From assembly GCA_963801165.1 (NCBI GenBank), contig CAWDDT010000010.1, positions 96,001-160,000 of the forward strand: a stretch of DNA of 64,000 bases, written 5' to 3'. Source of the stretch: an uncultured bacterium (GTDB lineage: Bacteria > Actinomycetota > Acidimicrobiia > Spongiisociales > UBA5794). Below the pieces are notes generated by a model. The model was not told the DNA's origin and did not search any database. It saw only the letters and a program-made list of their open reading frames with translations. The first letter of the stretch is position 1. Every line of letters begins with the position of its first letter. Below, in pieces: positions 6,165 through 12,969 of the stretch. The position numbers were made by a program, and so were the translations under genes.

Positions 6165-9151
6165 GCGAAACCCGGTCCGCCCTCGGCCCACGCCGGGCAT
6201 ACCTGGCGAAGCGAGCAACGTTCACAGTGGGTGCCCGGTTTCGGTGTCCAATCCTCGGATCGGATGCCTTCGGCGGCCAGCTGCAGGCGAGCTTCGACAT
6301 GGCTGAGAAGACCCATGTCGAACTTGCGTGTGGTGACACCCCTGGTCCCGTGCATCGGGTACCAGAGCTCGGCCCCGACTACCGGCCCGTGTGCATCGAG
6401 ATCCGAGTCGCGGTCGACGGCAAGCGCATAGAAGCCAAGCTGCAGGGATTCAGCGGCTTCTGCGATCTGAACGGGGTGCTTGCTGGTCTTGTAGTCGACA
6501 ATGGTCAAACCACCTGGTCCGCTGTCGATTCGGTCGATGCGACCGGTCCATTTGATGCCACCGACCTCGGCCTCGACGGTTCGCTCGAGGTCGAGGGCGC
6601 GACGCTTCCTGGTGGGCCAATTCTCGTAGAGACGGATCAACCCGTCGTGACCACGGTTCAGCCAGGAGTCGGCAAACGGACGGCCCCCGTAGTCGTTGGG
6701 GTCGAATCGCTCCCCGAGCTCGGTGAGAGCCGCGTCCAGCGTGCTGTGCTCTCGCCCCTGGTCGCGGGCGGTGCGTTCCACCGTCTCGAGAACATCGTGG
6801 ATCAGCGTACCGAAGTCAGCGTGGAGCGACGTGTCGGATCCGACTTTGAGACGGCGCTCGAGGGCATACCGTCGCGGGCAGTCCTCATACATTTGTGCCT
6901 GCGAGGGGGAGAGCACCACCTGGTCACCAATCAGGCCGTCGTCGGGTCCCCGGTCCCGGACACCGTTGAAGTCGGCAGCGGGGCGCAGCCCCCACTCCTC
7001 GCCGATGGCGAGGACTCGAAGGGCGGCGAGACGTGCCGGTCGCGGCGCAGCCACATCGACCAGGCAGCGACGCAGCGCGGCTTCGGCTTCGTGAGCCGTG
7101 ACAGGGAGCCGGCCACCCTCCGCGGGATGCGTTGGAGGGCACACGCTCACCCGGCCGGGTGGTCGGCCCGCATCGACCCCCACCCGGGCGGCGATTGTGG
7201 TGAAGAAGCGGCTGGGGCGGCCGGGTGCCTCGTCGAGACCACGTGCGGTGGCGGTCCAGATGACCCGGCGTCGGGCGCGGGTCATCGCCGTGTACGCCAA
7301 CCGGCTCTCCTCGCGAAGCCGGAAAGTCCGGTACTCCGCGGTATCAGCGGGGACGTGGGGCAACAGGTGTCGTACGCCGAGCAGCGAGTCCCGCGTACGG
7401 AGATCGGGAAATACCCCGTCAACTGCGTCGGCGATGAAGACCACGTCGAGTTCCAGCCCTTTTGCCTGGTGAAGAGTGGTCAGCGTGAGATAGTCGCCCT
7501 CCGGTCGGCGGTAGCTGAGCAGCGGCTGGGCTTCGAAATCCTCGCTCTCGGCGAGGCGGCGGTACTCGAGAAGTGTTCCCTGTGGATTGCGCTCCTCCCA
7601 GCGAACGAGCACCTGGGCCAACGATCGCCACGCCGCTCGCTCCTCAGCAGCCGCGGGGTCGGCAATGAGGCTCTCGACGCCGGGCAGAGTGCTCCACAGT
7701 TGCCACAGTCCATCGACGGCGGGAACGCTGGTGGCCCACCCGGGATCCTCGAGGAGGTCGGCGAGCCGGGACCACCCGGGGAGGGTCTCCCGGATCGCAC
7801 GAGACCAGGATGCGCTGACCCTGGCCTCCCGCTCCAGCGATCGAAACGCGCCGATTGTCAACCCGACTCGCGATCCGAGAAGCACCCGCCGCATTGCATT
7901 CTCCGCGGCGGTCGGCCCGTCGCATCCCGAAGCCGCGACGGCGAGGTCGAGTAGGAAGCGGACTGCGGGCTGGTCGGTGAGCCGGCTACCCGGTAGCTCG
8001 TGCGGTATGTGGCGGCGCTCCAACGCCCGGGAGAGGTCGGCAAGGAGCCGGCGTTTGCTGCGGACGAACACGCCGATTCGGCGGTAGGGGATACCTTCTG
8101 TGAGGTGGAGCCGTTGCGCCTCGGCCGATATCCATTCCGCTTCCTCGACTTGCTGGTCGAACCGGTACGCATCCACGACTCCCCGACCGGGGGCCGGGTG
8201 CACGGTTCCGGTCGCACCGGGAAGATCGCCGGTGGTCACTGCCACTGCCGCATCGAGGATGGCGGCCGGTGTGCGAAACGAGGTCGTCAGCAAGAAGCGG
8301 ATGGCGGGGGTTTCGGACGAGCCGAAATCATCCTCGAACGCGGCGACGTTCTCGACCGTGGCGCCCCGAAAGCTGTATATCGATTGGTAGGGGTCGGCGG
8401 CGGCGAGCGTGTGGCTGCCACCGCGTTGGAGTGCCTGCAGCAGCCGGACCTGGGCCGTCGTCGTGTCCTGGTATTCGTCAACCAGCACGTAGGTCTCAGT
8501 GTGCGCCGCAGCGAGGACGCCCTCTTCGAGCAGCGCGACGGCAGTGGAGATGAGAGTGCCGTAGTCGATGCGCCCCAGCTTGCGCAGCGCCCGTTGGTAT
8601 GTCGCGAGAAACTCCGGCAAACCGCGCCAATCGGCGCGCTCGAAACGGGCGATGGACTCGGGTGTGTTCATCTGCTCGGCTGAGCGCAAAATGAAGTCGG
8701 TCACCTCACCGGCAAAAGTCCGTGTGCCGAGAAGCTCGGCGAAGGCAGGGGACCAGGCGCGGCGGTCATCTTCTACCAGCAGTTCGTGCATCAGCGACAC
8801 CTGCTCGGGACCGGTGAGTATCTGCGGGTTCTCGCCCCATCCAGCGGCGACGCTGTTGATCTCGACCAGACGCGCAGCATAGGAGTGGAAGGTGGCGACA
8901 TCGAGAGCGCCGAGCGTATGGGTGATGCTCTGTCGAATCCGGCTGCGAACCTCGGCAACGCCGCGTCGGGAGAACCCGAGGACGGTGATCTGCTCAGGTC
9001 GTACCCCGGCAGCCGTGAGCAGATGGGTGGCCCGGCGGACCAGAAACTCCGTCTTTCCGGTCCCCGGACCGCCGACTACGAGCTGTGGGCCTGCGATGTG
9101 GGCCACGGCCTCCGGCCAGCCGTCGGGGTCGATCGAGATGGGGTCGTTCAC
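6161..9151 (-). CDS. UvrD-like helicase with C-terminal RecB-type nuclease (AdnA-like)
   Basis: GGPGTGKT, VDEYQD, TLHQAKGLE, YTAMTRAR, RIDRID...VDYKT, CPRR...CERCSLRQVC; GTGA overlap at 9148-9151. Confidence 0.87.
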   Translation of the reverse strand: MNDPISIDPDGWPEAVAHIAGPQLVVGGPGTGKTEFLVRRATHLLTAAGVRPEQITVLGFSRRGVAEVRSRIRQSITHTLGALDVATFHSYAARLVEINSVAAGWGENPQILTGPEQVSLMHELLVEDDRRAWSPAFAELLGTRTFAGEVTDFILRSAEQMNTPESIARFERADWRGLPEFLATYQRALRKLGRIDYGTLISTAVALLEEGVLAAAHTETYVLVDEYQDTTTAQVRLLQALQRGGSHTLAAADPYQSIYSFRGATVENVAAFEDDFGSSETPAIRFLLTTSFRTPAAILDAAVAVTTGDLPGATGTVHPAPGRGVVDAYRFDQQVEEAEWISAEAQRLHLTEGIPYRRIGVFVRSKRRLLADLSRALERRHIPHELPGSRLTDQPAVRFLLDLAVAASGCDGPTAAENAMRRVLLGSRVGLTIGAFRSLEREARVSASWSRAIRETLPGWSRLADLLEDPGWATSVPAVDGLWQLWSTLPGVESLIADPAAAEERAAWRSLAQVLVRWEERNPQGTLLEYRRLAESEDFEAQPLLSYRRPEGDYLTLTTLHQAKGLELDVVFIADAVDGVFPDLRTRDSLLGVRHLLPHVPADTAEYRTFRLREESRLAYTAMTRARRRVIWTATARGLDEAPGRPSRFFTTIAARVGVDAGRPPGRVSVCPPTHPAEGGRLPVTAHEAEAALRRCLVDVAAPRPARLAALRVLAIGEEWGLRPAADFNGVRDRGPDDGLIGDQVVLSPSQAQMYEDCPRRYALERRLKVGSDTSLHADFGTLIHDVLETVERTARDQGREHSTLDAALTELGERFDPNDYGGRPFADSWLNRGHDGLIRLYENWPTRKRRALDLERTVEAEVGGIKWTGRIDRIDSGPGGLTIVDYKTSKHPVQIAEAAESLQLGFYALAVDRDSDLDAHGPVVGAELWYPMHGTRGVTTRKFDMGLLSHVEARLQLAAEGIRSEDWTPKPGTHCERCSLRQVCPAWAEGGPGFA

Positions 9152-9966
9152 GACGTCGCGGGTTGGCCCGGATCGGTTGCAAAAGCCGGGCACCGATCCT
9201 GGAACTGGCACCAGTTGCACAGCTTGCCCGGTCTTGCGGGGAAGTCGTTGTTGATGATGGCCCGGTTTATGGCCGCCCAGAGTGCCTCGAGCTTGCGCCG
9301 GGTTGCGTCGAGTTGCTGGTCGCTAACCGGGATCTCGTACACCGTGGGCCGGCCCAGGTACATGAGCCGCAAACGTACCGGGGTGCGCCCGGTGCGCGCC
9401 CTGATGAGCAGCGCGTAGATCTTCAATGCGAAGAAGGCGGGAATGGCGTACCGCTCGGGTGGGGCCGAGCCGGTCTTGTAATCGGTGATGACCAGACCGT
9501 CCGGTTCCTCTTCCATCCGATCGAGAATGCCGCGGATGGTTATCTCGCCGAGCTCCTCGGTCATGTCGAGCTCCCGATCGACCGGATCAAACGAGGTTGG
9601 ATCCTCGATCACGAAGTAGTTGGCGAGCACCGACAGACTATCGATGCCCCAGGCTCGCTCCTCCTCGACGGTGTCGAAGAGACCGGGGAACTCCTCGTCG
9701 CGCAGCTCGACCCATGCCTTGCGAAACAGCTCGTAGAGCGTTTCCGGGGTGCGGTTCTTCGGGGCGAGATCGAACAGCCGCTGCAGGGCGAGGTGAGCGG
9801 TCGTACCCCGGGCCTGATACACGGTGGGGGGCACCTCGATCTTGTCGATTGCCTTGTACTTGAACAGAAGCGGGCACACTTTGAAGTCCCCGGCCCGCGA
9901 GGGAGACAGCGTTTCGAGGATCGGAGCCGCAATTGTCTGTGTCGTGGTGTGATTTGTAGCTGTCAT
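9148..9966 (-). CDS. Stand-alone RecB-family PD-(D/E)XK nuclease with 4-Cys (Fe-S) motif
   Basis: LSPSRAGDFKVCPLLF, GILDRME, ITDYKTG, LKIYAL, LCNWCQFQDRC; start at MTATNH, preceded by TATAGT. Confidence 0.85.
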   Translation of the reverse strand: MTATNHTTTQTIAAPILETLSPSRAGDFKVCPLLFKYKAIDKIEVPPTVYQARGTTAHLALQRLFDLAPKNRTPETLYELFRKAWVELRDEEFPGLFDTVEEERAWGIDSLSVLANYFVIEDPTSFDPVDRELDMTEELGEITIRGILDRMEEEPDGLVITDYKTGSAPPERYAIPAFFALKIYALLIRARTGRTPVRLRLMYLGRPTVYEIPVSDQQLDATRRKLEALWAAINRAIINNDFPARPGKLCNWCQFQDRCPAFATDPGQPATS

Positions 9967-10044
9967 CGCCTTTCGACTATACGCCGCGCCACCGACAAGA
10001 ACCACACGCGTGTAGTTATCGCGTGTAGTTATCGACAGGGAGAT

Positions 10045-10119
10045 CGCGAAATATTTGCCGAATTCGCGAAAACGAACCAGCCATCCAACTTGACTGCACA
10101 AAGCGGTCGGGCGTACGTT
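10045..10119 (+). promoter_or_regulatory. SigA-type promoter with upstream CGCGAAA direct repeats (drives RNA-1)
   Basis: CGCGAAA at 10045 and 10065; TTGACT 10090-10095; 18-nt spacer; TACGTT 10114-10119. Confidence 0.7.
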
Positions 10120-10124
10120 ATCGG

Positions 10125-10876
10125 TCCTCGAGGCTCCGACCATGGCGGAGTGGTTCTCGGAAGGAAAGGGATTGGGAAACCGGCCCTCTCCGGCACCGGG
10201 AACAACGGGATGGATACATCCCGAAGGGCACCCGGTCCCCCGGCGGAACTCCGGTTCCGGCGGAACCGAGGGTCCACGTCCGAGAGGCTTCGGCCTCGAA
10301 GACAACAGGTTGAACGGGTTTCGGCCCGGGAAACCGACAGGGCTCCGGCTCTGTCACCCGCCCTGCTACGGCAGAGCAAACCGGGAGGGCTTCGGCCCGA
10401 CCAGAAGGCCTCGGAGGGTGAAATCCTCCGAAGCAACGGGCGGCCTTCGGGCCACCCGGTCCTCCGAGTGAGGCGCACCGCCGCTGCGGTTGGGACTACG
10501 GTCTCACCACAGCGGGCAGACGTAACACGAAGGTGGACGAAACGCCGAGGCAATCGGCGGGACGAGGGTTTCCTCGGTGAGGGCAACGCCCGATCCGAGA
10601 AGGCTGCCGGGTCAAACCGAGCGGCAAGCCCTCCGACCAAGGGTTGCAGCGGTTTCCCCTGGTGGGAGCTTCGGCGCCCGCTAGCGGAGACGGCACGGCC
10701 GGCTGTACCGGGCTTCGGTCCGGTGACGACCGGGCGGGCCGGTGGGTGTCCTAACGGCCATCTACAAAGCAGCGGCTGGAAGCGGCCCGACTCCTCACGG
10801 AGAAGGTGCCCGACCAGAAGCGAGGATCCCCGAGAGGGTGGCGACTCCGGTCAAAACTCCCTCGGGGTTTCCTTTT
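10125..10876 (+). ncRNA. Putative large (~750 nt) highly structured non-coding RNA, family unassigned (RNA-1)
   Basis: No credible CDS. About 11 UNCG-capped hairpins plus GAAA/GATA/GGCAA loops and a GGGTGAAATCC T-loop-like hairpin. Long-range helices 10226-10232/10805-10811 and 10462-10473/10793-10802. Promoter upstream; hairpin plus U-tract downstream. Confidence 0.8.
10823..10876 (+). terminator. 3' terminal hairpin / intrinsic terminator of RNA-1
   Basis: CCCCGAGAGGGT...ACTCCCTCGGGG stem followed by TTTCCTTTT. Confidence 0.7.
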
Positions 10877-11000
10877 GTCACGAGGTTTGTCACGAGGTTT
10901 GTCACGAGGTTTGTCACGAGGTTTGTCACGAGGTTTGTCGCGAGGTTTGTCGCGAGGTTGTCGCGAGGGTTGCCGCGGAGGTTGCCGCGGAGGGTTGTCG
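10874..11000. repeat. 12-bp tandem repeat TTTGTCACGAGG, 5 perfect copies then progressively degenerate
   Basis: Perfect units at 10874, 10886, 10898, 10910 and 10922; variants TTTGTCGCGAGG x2, then TTGCCGCGGAGG-type units. Confidence 0.9.
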
Positions 11001-11022
11001 AGAGGGCTCGAAGCCTGTCGTT

Positions 11023-11679
11023 TCAGGTACACCCATCGAGCGGCTGGAGCAGCGTCACGGTGTCGTTGTCGTCCGACCCGCTCAGCAGACCCCGGAAGCC
11101 GGCAGAGACGGCCCGAAACGACCACACATCGAGTACCGCGTCTCCCTCGACCACCATATCGGCGCCGAATGCACTGCGGAGCGCGGCGACGGTCGTTCCG
11201 AGCCCAACGCCCTGTTCGGTCGTCAGGTCTAGACCACGCGGATCGATGCCGCCCTCGTTCTCGGAGAAGTCGTAACCGTAGGTATACGTGTAGAAGTATC
11301 CACCGAGGTCGGGAGCGCCGTCGTCGATGAAGATGGTCACGAGGCTACCCCAGCCGATGGCCCGCATCGTCGAGCCGGGGCACGAGCCATAGGCGTTCGG
11401 CTCCGACGGTATCCAGCCGCTATCCAGATCGGGGCCACCGACGAGTGCGGCGATGTCGTCCACGACCGTGTCAGGAGCGAGCCCGAAGCTCACCTCGCCG
11501 AGACCGTCGGGGGAGAGGGCTAGCTTCACCAGCGGGGCCGGGACCGTCGTTGTCGAATCCTGCGCGGCTCCGCATCCAGTGAGAAGGACGCACATGAGCA
11601 TCGCCGCGACTCGACGTCCCGCCGCCGGTCGAGCCCGGGCTGCCCGGGTGCACCCGACGATCCGCTTCTCTCGAGCCAA
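11023..11679 (-). CDS. Putative lipoprotein of unknown function
   Basis: TTG start 6 nt after GGAGG; basic N-region, hydrophobic stretch, lipobox LTG-C, Thr-rich linker. Confidence 0.75.
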   Translation of the reverse strand: MAREKRIVGCTRAARARPAAGRRVAAMLMCVLLTGCGAAQDSTTTVPAPLVKLALSPDGLGEVSFGLAPDTVVDDIAALVGGPDLDSGWIPSEPNAYGSCPGSTMRAIGWGSLVTIFIDDGAPDLGGYFYTYTYGYDFSENEGGIDPRGLDLTTEQGVGLGTTVAALRSAFGADMVVEGDAVLDVWSFRAVSAGFRGLLSGSDDNDTVTLLQPLDGCT

Positions 11680-11765
11680 CTAGTACCTCCGGCGAGGACA
11701 CTACACCGGGACCCGGAAGGTCCCCTGCGCACGGGCTCTGGGCCGGATCGGGACCCCGGGGCACA

Positions 11766-11804
11766 TGAGTTCGGTGAGTGAATTCGGCGAGTGAGTTCGG
11801 CGAG
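11766..11804. repeat. 13-bp tandem repeat TGAGTTCGGCGAG x3 (imperfect)
   Basis: Units at 11766, 11779 and 11792. Confidence 0.7.
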
Positions 11805-11870
11805 TGATAAGGAGGATTCGGTCGACTATTCGCGCCTGATCCGGGTATCGGAGCGGCGCCACGATCGGGT

Positions 11871-11945
11871 CGCGAAACAAAGCGGGAAAGCGCGAAATCA
11901 AGACACGGTTTTGGCTTGACCGCGGCATGGGCTACGCACTAACTT
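11871..11945 (+). promoter_or_regulatory. SigA-type promoter with upstream CGCGAAA direct repeats (drives RNA-2)
   Basis: CGCGAAA at 11871 and 11891; TTGACC 11916-11921; 18-nt spacer; TAACTT 11940-11945. Confidence 0.7.
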
Positions 11946-11951
11946 GGCTTT

Positions 11952-12220
11952 AGTCGATGAGGCGGGAAACCGCAGCAGAGACTCCAGGCCTCGCAAGGGG
12001 TTCTGGGATCTGGACGAGTCACCGGGCCGCGAGGTCGGGTGGCGACACCGCAAGGAAAGTCCGGGGACGAGCCCCAGTGGTTCGGCCTCACGGGCTGCGA
12101 AGGATCGCTGATCGGGACTTCGGTCCTGAGAGGCATCTCGGTTGAGCCGCAAGGTTCCGACCGAGAAGAGAGCCCCGAGAGGGTCGACGCTTCGGCGAGA
12201 ACTTTCTCGGGGTTTCTCGC
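11952..12220 (+). ncRNA. Putative ~270-nt structured non-coding RNA, family unassigned (RNA-2)
   Basis: Series of hairpins: GCGG-GAAA-CCGC, C-GCAA-G, GGCC-GCGA-GGTC, CC-GCAA-GG, TCGGGAC-TTCG-GTCCTGA, GAGCC-GCAA-GGTTC, CGC-TTCG-GCG; own promoter; 3' hairpin near-identical to RNA-1. Confidence 0.72.
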
Positions 12221-12336: not shown

Positions 12337-12969
12337 ATGGCTTTTCCAGAGAACATCCTCACGGAAGATGAGACGATCGTCAGTCAGTTTCGACCGCACT
12401 GGAGGATGCTCGCCATCCCTGTGCTGTGGTTTATCGCCGGCATTGTTGCCATAGTCCTCGTGTCGGTCTATTCCTGGCTCGACGACTATTCGATCATCCG
12501 CTGGATCCTGATCGCAGCGCTAGTGCTTGCTTTGTTCCCGCTGGTGGTAAGCCCCGTTCTCCGGTGGGTGTTCACGTCCTACGTTCTCACCAGCGAGCGG
12601 CTGATGACGAGGACCGGGATGATCGCTCGCAGCGGCATCGAGTTGCCGCTGGCCAGCATCAACGACGTGCGCTTTCACCAGACGGTTCTCGAGCGTGTGC
12701 TGAAGTCGGGCGACCTCGTAATCGAGTCGGCAGGTGAGAGCGGGCAGAGCAGGTTCACCGATATCCCGCGCCCTGAGGAGTTCCAATCGCTGCTGTACCG
12801 GACCCGGGAACAGCAGCAACACAACAGCGCCGTAGAGCAGTCGGCAAAGGCCGCCGAAGTGACCCGCGACCCAACCGAGGAGTTGGAGAGAGCTGCCCGA
12901 CTACGCGATGACGGGGTGCTCTCTGAGGAGGAGTTCCAAGCCATGAAGCAGCGCATCCTCGGGACGTAG
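12337..12969 (+). CDS. Membrane protein with bacterial PH domain and C-terminal SHOCT domain
   Basis: RPHWRML, two TM helices, YVLTSERL...GDLVIESAGE, C-terminal LRDDGVLSEEEFQAMKQRIL. Confidence 0.85.
   Translation: MAFPENILTEDETIVSQFRPHWRMLAIPVLWFIAGIVAIVLVSVYSWLDDYSIIRWILIAALVLALFPLVVSPVLRWVFTSYVLTSERLMTRTGMIARSGIELPLASINDVRFHQTVLERVLKSGDLVIESAGESGQSRFTDIPRPEEFQSLLYRTREQQQHNSAVEQSAKAAEVTRDPTEELERAARLRDDGVLSEEEFQAMKQRILGT

Follow-up and report, generated by a model that had tools for sequence, protein, structure and literature searches.

Two neighbouring genes for structured RNAs, here called RNA-1 and RNA-2, lie within a 64,000 nt stretch of DNA (the window; positions 96,001 to 160,000 of contig CAWDDT010000010.1, assembly GCA_963801165.1) from an uncultured bacterium of the class Acidimicrobiia, in an order that is most likely UBA5794. 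Analysis of this region revealed both genes to be preceded by the same promoter, in which two CGCGAAA boxes stand in a fixed register upstream of the -35 hexamer. In this order and its sister order, the box also stood upstream of dnaA, nrdJ and a whiB3-like gene; both RNAs were recovered as contigs from RNA libraries. CGCGAAA probably binds a single clade-specific activator, which would switch on the RNAs, dnaA, nrdJ and the whiB3-like gene with DNA replication; that the genes carrying the box are activated and co-regulated is what we infer from its position and its gene set.

Promoter layout of the two RNA genes

An earlier note, made from the sequence of the window alone, had placed eight promoter elements upstream of the two RNAs, and all eight coordinates were exact when the sequence was read again. 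They are given below, the -35 hexamer being numbered from -36, which we take to be its usual start.

10045..10051, plus strand: RNA-1 distal CGCGAAA box, about -81 to -75
10065..10071, plus strand: RNA-1 proximal CGCGAAA box, about -61 to -55
10090..10095, plus strand: RNA-1 -35 hexamer TTGACT, with C immediately 5′
10114..10119, plus strand: RNA-1 -10 hexamer TACGTT
11871..11877, plus strand: RNA-2 distal CGCGAAA box
11891..11897, plus strand: RNA-2 proximal CGCGAAA box
11916..11921, plus strand: RNA-2 -35 hexamer TTGACC, with C immediately 5′
11940..11945, plus strand: RNA-2 -10 hexamer TAACTT

Both promoters follow the pattern CGCGAAA-N13-CGCGAAA-N18-TTGAC-N19-TAnnnT. The spacing was as previously described, with repeats at an interval of 20 bp, the second repeat starting 25 bp 5′ of the -35 hexamer and a spacer of 18 nt. 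The intervening bases had been reported to differ between the promoters; this held overall, as only 17 of the 49 positions outside the four elements were identical, but the 18 bases between proximal box and -35 hexamer proved to be partly constrained. Within this interval, A(+1), C(+2), A(+4), A(+8) and T(+13) were retained in 29–32 of 36 homologous promoters.

A scan of the 4.55-Mb genome for CGCGAAA-N13-CGCGAAA-N18-TTGAC, as the note had proposed, matched the two window promoters and no other site (~5e-6 occurrences expected from the genome's own word counts); CGCG is depleted in this genome, with an observed to expected ratio of 0.70. A matrix built from the 36 homologous promoters, this genome excluded, ranked the window sites first at 59 and 53 bits, followed by C9:406034 at 26 bits, and all remaining sites in the genome scored <16. 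A sigma-70 scanner returned no promoters, because it accepts spacers of at most 18 and demands 9 of 12 matches. Across homologous units the -10 TAnnnT lay 41–42 nt after the box in 120 of 125; in a set of 124 units, partly chosen by the motif, the distal box was present in 118 and the -10 hexamer in 120.

Additionally, a third full two-box promoter (G000 C9:406036-406944) had a LexA-type box over its -35 hexamer and preceded a gene whose 269-aa product has no clear family; the same arrangement was found in G005. Two box-led units were also seen back to back and divergent, with their box pairs adjacent, at L174:2516-2534 (G172) and G083 C1:21829-21916.

Distribution of the promoter

Of 301 genomes of the order, 256 contained the strict layout, usually in 1–5 clustered copies, and a reversed control gave 0 in every row; none of 139 Acidimicrobiia genomes outside the order contained it. 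The 301 include five genomes marked unpublished (G063, G074, G201, G233 and G258), of which G063 and G074 also enter counts at other box-carrying genes such as dnaA and nrdJ; the conclusions are independent of them. All 29 loci recovered by RNA sequence similarity alone carried box-N18-TTG, a result that is not circular because these loci were found by RNA sequence and not by motif. A scan for the exact pattern yielded 125 loci, of which 79 were titled as Acidimicrobiia or actinobacterial; most of the others were chance matches that failed the full matrix. No viral contig matched either of two patterns.

A one-box form, CGCGAAA-N18-TTGC, was found in 12 of 12 AT-rich genomes of ~1 Mb and ~31% GC, with 1–3 copies in each (27 sites; control 0). 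These genomes most likely belong to Candidatus Actinomarina, since their small size and low GC fit the description of that group in the consulted part of PMC7771536; the consulted part of PMC12008989 gives Ca. Actinomarina as the sister order of UBA5794. Their RNA promoters contained the proximal box only, with CGCG invariant in 12 of 12 genomes. Together with the counts from the order and from the RNA-found loci, this bears out the proposal that the motif is conserved under selection, and the promoter layout is under selection.

The Actinomarina-type box heads an RNA of ~85 nt with two hairpins. An alignment of 20 of its 25 copies showed 98% of cells to be paired and five pairs to change on both sides, and its covariation score exceeded that of 500 of 500 shuffles. 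The same 3′ hairpin was found at 102 of 117 sites in marine metagenome contigs, and an Rfam search of five Actinomarina-type RNA loci gave no real match. Common descent of the UBA5794 and Actinomarina RNAs is likely; as judged from sequence comparison, the shared promoter is a stronger link between the two orders than RNA similarity. A SAM-I/IV riboswitch was seen near one RNA copy of an Actinomarina-type genome (L406:2861-2953).

The box at dnaA, nrdJ and a whiB3-like gene

Promoters of rRNA and tRNA genes, which the earlier note had named as places to look, did not share the layout: the single 16S promoter lacked the box, and one of 49 tRNA/tmRNA genes had a box within 250 bp, out of register. 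The box was linked instead to dnaA, nrdJ and the whiB3-like gene. Non-RNA box sites were surveyed in 60 regions, and dnaA and nrdJ recurred among them and were therefore tested directly.

Upstream of dnaA, one box was present in 28 of 30 order genomes and a pair in 18 of 30. Outside the order, a pair was found in one of 28 scorable regions, which came from a 1.1-Mb, 31%-GC genome of the Actinomarina type. Exactly one 20-bp box pair occurred in each of five Actinomarina-type genomes, its placement upstream of dnaA being read in one of the five. At 23 loci read by hand, the proximal dnaA box lay 128, 137–142 or 149–153 bp before the -35 hexamer, spacings that are in phase with the 25-bp register of the RNA promoters (concentration R 0.61 at 10.5 bp).

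For nrdJ, which encodes a class II ribonucleotide reductase, the box was found in 25 of 30 order genomes compared to one of 30 in a control stretch. In 21 of 30 a -10-like hexamer followed the box at 41–44 nt, even if the -35 hexamer was degenerate, and the box was also present in the Actinomarina-type loci L339 and L341. The whiB3-like gene carried the box in 7 of 14 plus 3 of 3 order genomes and in 4 of 4 Actinomarina-type genomes, and in none of the 14 best hits outside the order, three of which may not be orthologues. Within the order the distance from the box to the -10 hexamer of this gene was often 49–52 nt, longer by one turn.

Several other features were seen at these and related genes. 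In loci L259, L260, L262, L264, L271, L272, L275 and L278-L280 an inverted box, TTTTCGCG, replaces the nrdJ -35 hexamer and forms a spaced palindrome with the proximal box. Many dnaA and nrdJ leaders (L183-L212, L253-L282) contain, a short way past the -10 hexamer, a recurrent CACTTCCCC word that may be another regulator's site. At G000 C11:291867, in an intergenic region far from dnaA, a single box precedes a group of DnaA-box-like sequences. In two genera (L164, L165, L248) a two-box promoter heads a small gene and an operon of the RcpC/CpaB family. The dnaB gene of this genome has no box. The open frames of NrdJ (2,020 aa; G000 C11:317993) and DnaB (878 aa; C5:387156-389792) are much longer than those of their relatives, which suggests inteins.

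RNA-1 and RNA-2

The transcribed regions predicted downstream of the two promoters were as follows.

10126..10875, plus strand: RNA-1, branched hairpin RNA of ~750 nt, start predicted, fold z -8.0 against shuffles
10823..10873, plus strand: conserved 3′ hairpin/terminator of RNA-1, common to the RNA family
11952..12220, plus strand: RNA-2, structured RNA of ~270 nt, start predicted, fold z -5.4 against shuffles
12168..12218, plus strand: conserved 3′ hairpin/terminator of RNA-2

An alignment of 12 of 14 RNA-1 homologues contained 176 consensus pairs, 62 of them with compensatory change. In 8 of 8 metatranscriptome runs, near-identical contigs covered the greater part of RNA-1, spanning up to 10134–10831, and contigs within 11963–12181 of RNA-2 were found in 5 of 8 runs, which supports the view of the earlier note, argued from the promoters, that both are real transcription units. 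The left ends of the contigs fell at 10134–10146 for RNA-1 (one at 10181) and at 11963–11966 for RNA-2 (one at 12006), 8–20 nt inside the predicted starts at ~10126 and ~11952. In four of the runs no contig extended over 9700–10103 or 10912–11921, although gaps in contigs prove nothing.

The homologous units range from ~50 to 830 nt; their bodies differ, and what they have in common is the 3′ hairpin and a type of 5′ hairpin. For the window, Rfam searches at both gathering and E-value thresholds produced no real match, and the Ms1 (RF02566) and 6S (RF00013) models were not found in this genome. Identity with RNase P RNA, tmRNA or an SRP-like RNA was rejected because all three are encoded elsewhere in the genome. 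Searches of open-access literature, supplements aside, yielded no description of the motif, the regulon or the RNA family, and PMC5069720 contained nothing on these RNAs.

Among the RNAs that bind RNA polymerase, Ms1, 6S and CoRP served for comparison (PMC4191392, PMC9130861 and PMC11077062, each in the part consulted). Like the window RNAs, Ms1 (MTS2823/scr3559) and 6S are structured, encoded by genes of their own and preceded by sigma-A-like promoters in Actinomycetota. As the consulted text has it, Ms1 is a single-copy RNA that forms one long hairpin with a central bubble and neighbours a HAD hydrolase gene, whereas the window family is multi-copy and consists of branched hairpin arrays with nuclease and PH-domain flanks. 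Four Ms1 promoters had no box pair and contained a CRP-type palindrome. The 6S/Ms1 role may be vacant in this genome, as neither family was found in it. The reading of the RNAs that we favour, though at less than even odds, is that they would be stable protein-binding RNAs that act on the transcription machinery in place of 6S/Ms1.

A tandem 12-bp repeat, TTTGTCACGAGG, occurs in about nine decaying copies directly after the RNA-1 terminator (10874–10990), and shorter 13-bp repeats were seen at 10007–10032 and 11766–11807.

How the box may act

A class I activator of sigma-A RNA polymerase fits the box best because of the fixed register with the -10 hexamer, the long-range phasing, the non-palindromic 7-mer in single or tandem form, and the retention of CGCG at 31% GC. 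A fixed, helix-phased position was found at the RNA units, at nrdJ and at dnaA. A sequence-specific protein would bind each 7–8 bp box as a unit, and would probably contact RNA polymerase through the alpha subunit's C-terminal domain (alpha-CTD), whose distal UP subsite would coincide with the A-tract of the box. A single box would be sufficient at nrdJ, at whiB and in Actinomarina; at the RNA genes and dnaA, a tandem pair spaced by 20 bp, on one face of the helix, would activate more strongly. Helical phase would be preserved ~10 bp further out at the whiB3-like gene and at each of the three dnaA spacings. An initiator, a class II ribonucleotide reductase and a WhiB factor would mark a programme of growth or entry into replication, and the RNAs would therefore probably be made in it.

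Class I sites, whose geometry is familiar from CRP and Fis, and UP elements share with the box elements at about -60 and -80, a fixed helical register with the -35 hexamer and an A-tract at the distal alpha-CTD subsite. The box differs from them in its invariant CGCG half, its non-palindromic 7-mer, its restriction to two orders and its absence from rRNA and tRNA promoters. The earlier note had allowed for an UP-like element. A factor-independent, extended UP element, with alpha-CTDs directly on the A-tracts at -57 and -77 and strong constitutive promoters as the result, is unlikely. In the UP consensus, A-tracts occupy -57 to -54, -44 to -41 or both in the consulted part of PMC5664571. The AAA(A) of the box, which ends 18 nt before the TTG, falls in the register of the distal subsite of E. 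coli; the second box lies two turns upstream and the 18-nt spacer of Actinomarina is A/T-rich in the manner of a classical UP element. This much of the UP-like proposal stood. An UP element, however, requires only A/T, and CGCG was invariant in the box at 64% as well as ~31% GC. In 30 genomes the DNA-binding segments of the alpha-CTD (SERPRNCL and NFGQKS) were identical whether or not the lineage has the box; moreover, the paired dnaA boxes are 130–150 bp from the -35 hexamer and the rRNA promoter has no box.

That the box binds a repressor, or a protein of chromosome organisation or of the origin, and so blocks or tunes transcription, is a weaker candidate again. The dnaA pair does lie far upstream in the rpmH-dnaA interval, and the inverted box overlaps the -35 position in several nrdJ promoters, where it could act in repression. 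At the RNA genes and most nrdJ genes, however, the box is wholly upstream of the -35 hexamer at a fixed distance to the -10 hexamer, as is typical of activators, and the RNAs were recovered as contigs.

A dedicated two-component response regulator driving sibling small RNAs, with dnaA and nrdJ as side targets, is improbable. Sibling RNAs under one response regulator are known from CiaR-csRNA and GacA-rsmXYZ, where several RNA genes likewise share one upstream direct-repeat layout; here, too, tandem direct repeats stand just 5′ of the -35 hexamer of multi-copy RNA genes, and this genome encodes 17 full-length OmpR-family regulators. One box suffices, however, unlike the half-site pairs that we take to be usual for OmpR. 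Core replication genes are in the regulon, unlike in those systems, and no dedicated OmpR-type regulator was found in the sister-order genomes: in a search covering the OmpR family and not NarL/LuxR-type proteins, the glnA-linked GlnR orthologue was the only universal member in 3 of 3 box-keeping sister genomes, with PhoB-like proteins in 2 of 3. The consulted part of PMC7771536 reports no identifiable two-component systems in Actinomarina.

The idea that the shared promoter is a mere relic of duplication with no common regulator, which the tandem paralogy of the RNA genes and their common 3′ hairpin might suggest, is largely refuted and very improbable, as the spacers have diverged (17/49) while the boxes are invariant across two orders and an identical box stands at unrelated genes.

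Several observations weigh against a single activator acting on one conserved set of genes and RNAs. The binding protein was not found among the candidates screened. In family f10 the strict pattern was present in 6 of 25 genomes only, and related genomes are not independent, so that the counts overstate significance. The box was missing from nrdJ in 5 of 30 and from the whiB3-like gene in 7 of 14 order genomes, and scattered sites occurred at unrelated genes (dnaB once, the RcpC-family operon and the LexA-box gene of this genus). The dnaA boxes, at 130–150 bp from the promoter, lie between divergent rpmH and dnaA promoters, a position from which repression, action on rpmH or an origin function would be possible. 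The eight runs were salt-marsh metatranscriptomes, all from 2020, selected for holding the stretch and perhaps from one campaign, and their contigs carry no information on strand, start or level. The Actinomarina RNA model hit the 3′ ends of UBA5794 RNAs weakly (E 0.002–0.02, 4 of 28 loci) and missed RNA-1 and RNA-2 of the window; it had no match in three Ms1 loci. In the reverse direction a UBA5794 hairpin model found the Actinomarina hairpins at E ~0.01, on both strands, with 0.055 as the best of the controls.

Candidates for the factor

Among the candidates for the protein that binds the box, a KilA-N/APSES factor was rejected as the 98%-complete genome contained 0 candidates. The box is identical in its seven letters to the CGCGAAA of yeast SCB and animal E2F elements, which likewise stand upstream of ribonucleotide reductase and replication genes; given that this genome has no KilA-N/APSES domain, the likeness is treated as coincidence. 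A conserved C5 methylase did not fit, as it was found in one of five genomes, despite the depletion of CGCG in this one; the sole BldC-like HTH_17 hit in four Actinomarina-type genomes was HspR, and of OmpR regulators GlnR alone was universal in three sister-order genomes. A clade-specific alpha-CTD was rejected on the 30-genome comparison given above. A Pfam scan of 36 short Actinomarina open reading frames (ORFs) gave a McdR-like MerR protein and a DksA-like protein, and no new candidate. McdR itself was rejected as box factor since CGCGAAA lacks the AATnACAnnnnTGTnATT palindrome.

Neighbouring genes and the McdR-like palindrome

The RNA cluster of the window is accompanied by the following features.

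9148..9966, minus strand: PD-(D/E)XK nuclease gene (PF12705), the usual flank, at 46 of 63 loci of at least 2 kb
10000..10017, no strand assigned: McdR (Rv1830)-like palindrome, next to the RNA-1 distal box; the RNA-1 promoter lies on one side of it and the divergent nuclease gene on the other
11023..11601, minus strand: gene lying between the two RNA genes; its 192-aa product belongs to no Pfam family and has homologues at 16 of 63 loci
12337..12969, plus strand: bPH_2/SHOCT membrane protein gene, the usual downstream flank, at 31 of 63 loci

A nuclease, PH-domain or helicase gene flanked the RNA cluster in 59 of 63 long loci. No regulator gene was conserved beside the RNA clusters among 517 ORFs from 110 loci.

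The palindrome at 10000–10017 matched AATnACAnnnnTGTnATT, as given in the consulted part of PMC9040748, with two changes, and similar palindromes were found upstream of 21 of 123 homologous units. Judged by its sequence, it is the site of a regulator other than that of the box. McdR-like palindromes were also seen upstream of dnaX, smc and a whiB2-like gene (G000 C9:121011, C10:122929), and one overlies a second nrdJ promoter (nrdJ loci L253-L282), which suggests that a McdR regulon exists in this class. The mycobacterial McdR (Rv1830)-WhiB2 loop resembles the present system as a case of cell-cycle regulation in Actinomycetota that touches a whiB gene; in the consulted text of PMC9040748 it differs from the box in its palindromic site (AATnACA-N4-TGTnATT), in repression at the start site and in the whiB paralogue involved.

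Significance

What these results describe is real, conserved and uncatalogued, a new regulon that uses familiar promoter logic and is attached to a new RNA family. The box is a regulatory handle on an RNA family that has no catalogue match, and a regulon shared with dnaA and nrdJ would turn an abundant, uncatalogued RNA into a testable hypothesis linked to replication. It also brings together, as one system with a minimal version, the 85-nt RNAs found in marine Actinomarina and the large ones of UBA5794 from sediment and soil, and because Actinomarina has so few regulators, the factor is findable. A bolder proposal, which we regard as doubtful, is that one new DNA-binding protein runs a cell-cycle programme comprising the initiator, ribonucleotide reductase, WhiB and the structured RNAs, and that the RNAs serve as a replication timer through feedback on either RNA polymerase or the activator. 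Ca. Actinomarina is among the smallest free-living cells. If the proposal were true, the RNA family would be so needed that a 1-Mb Actinomarina genome keeps 1–3 copies of an 85-nt core, a core that its sediment relatives would have expanded to 800 nt.

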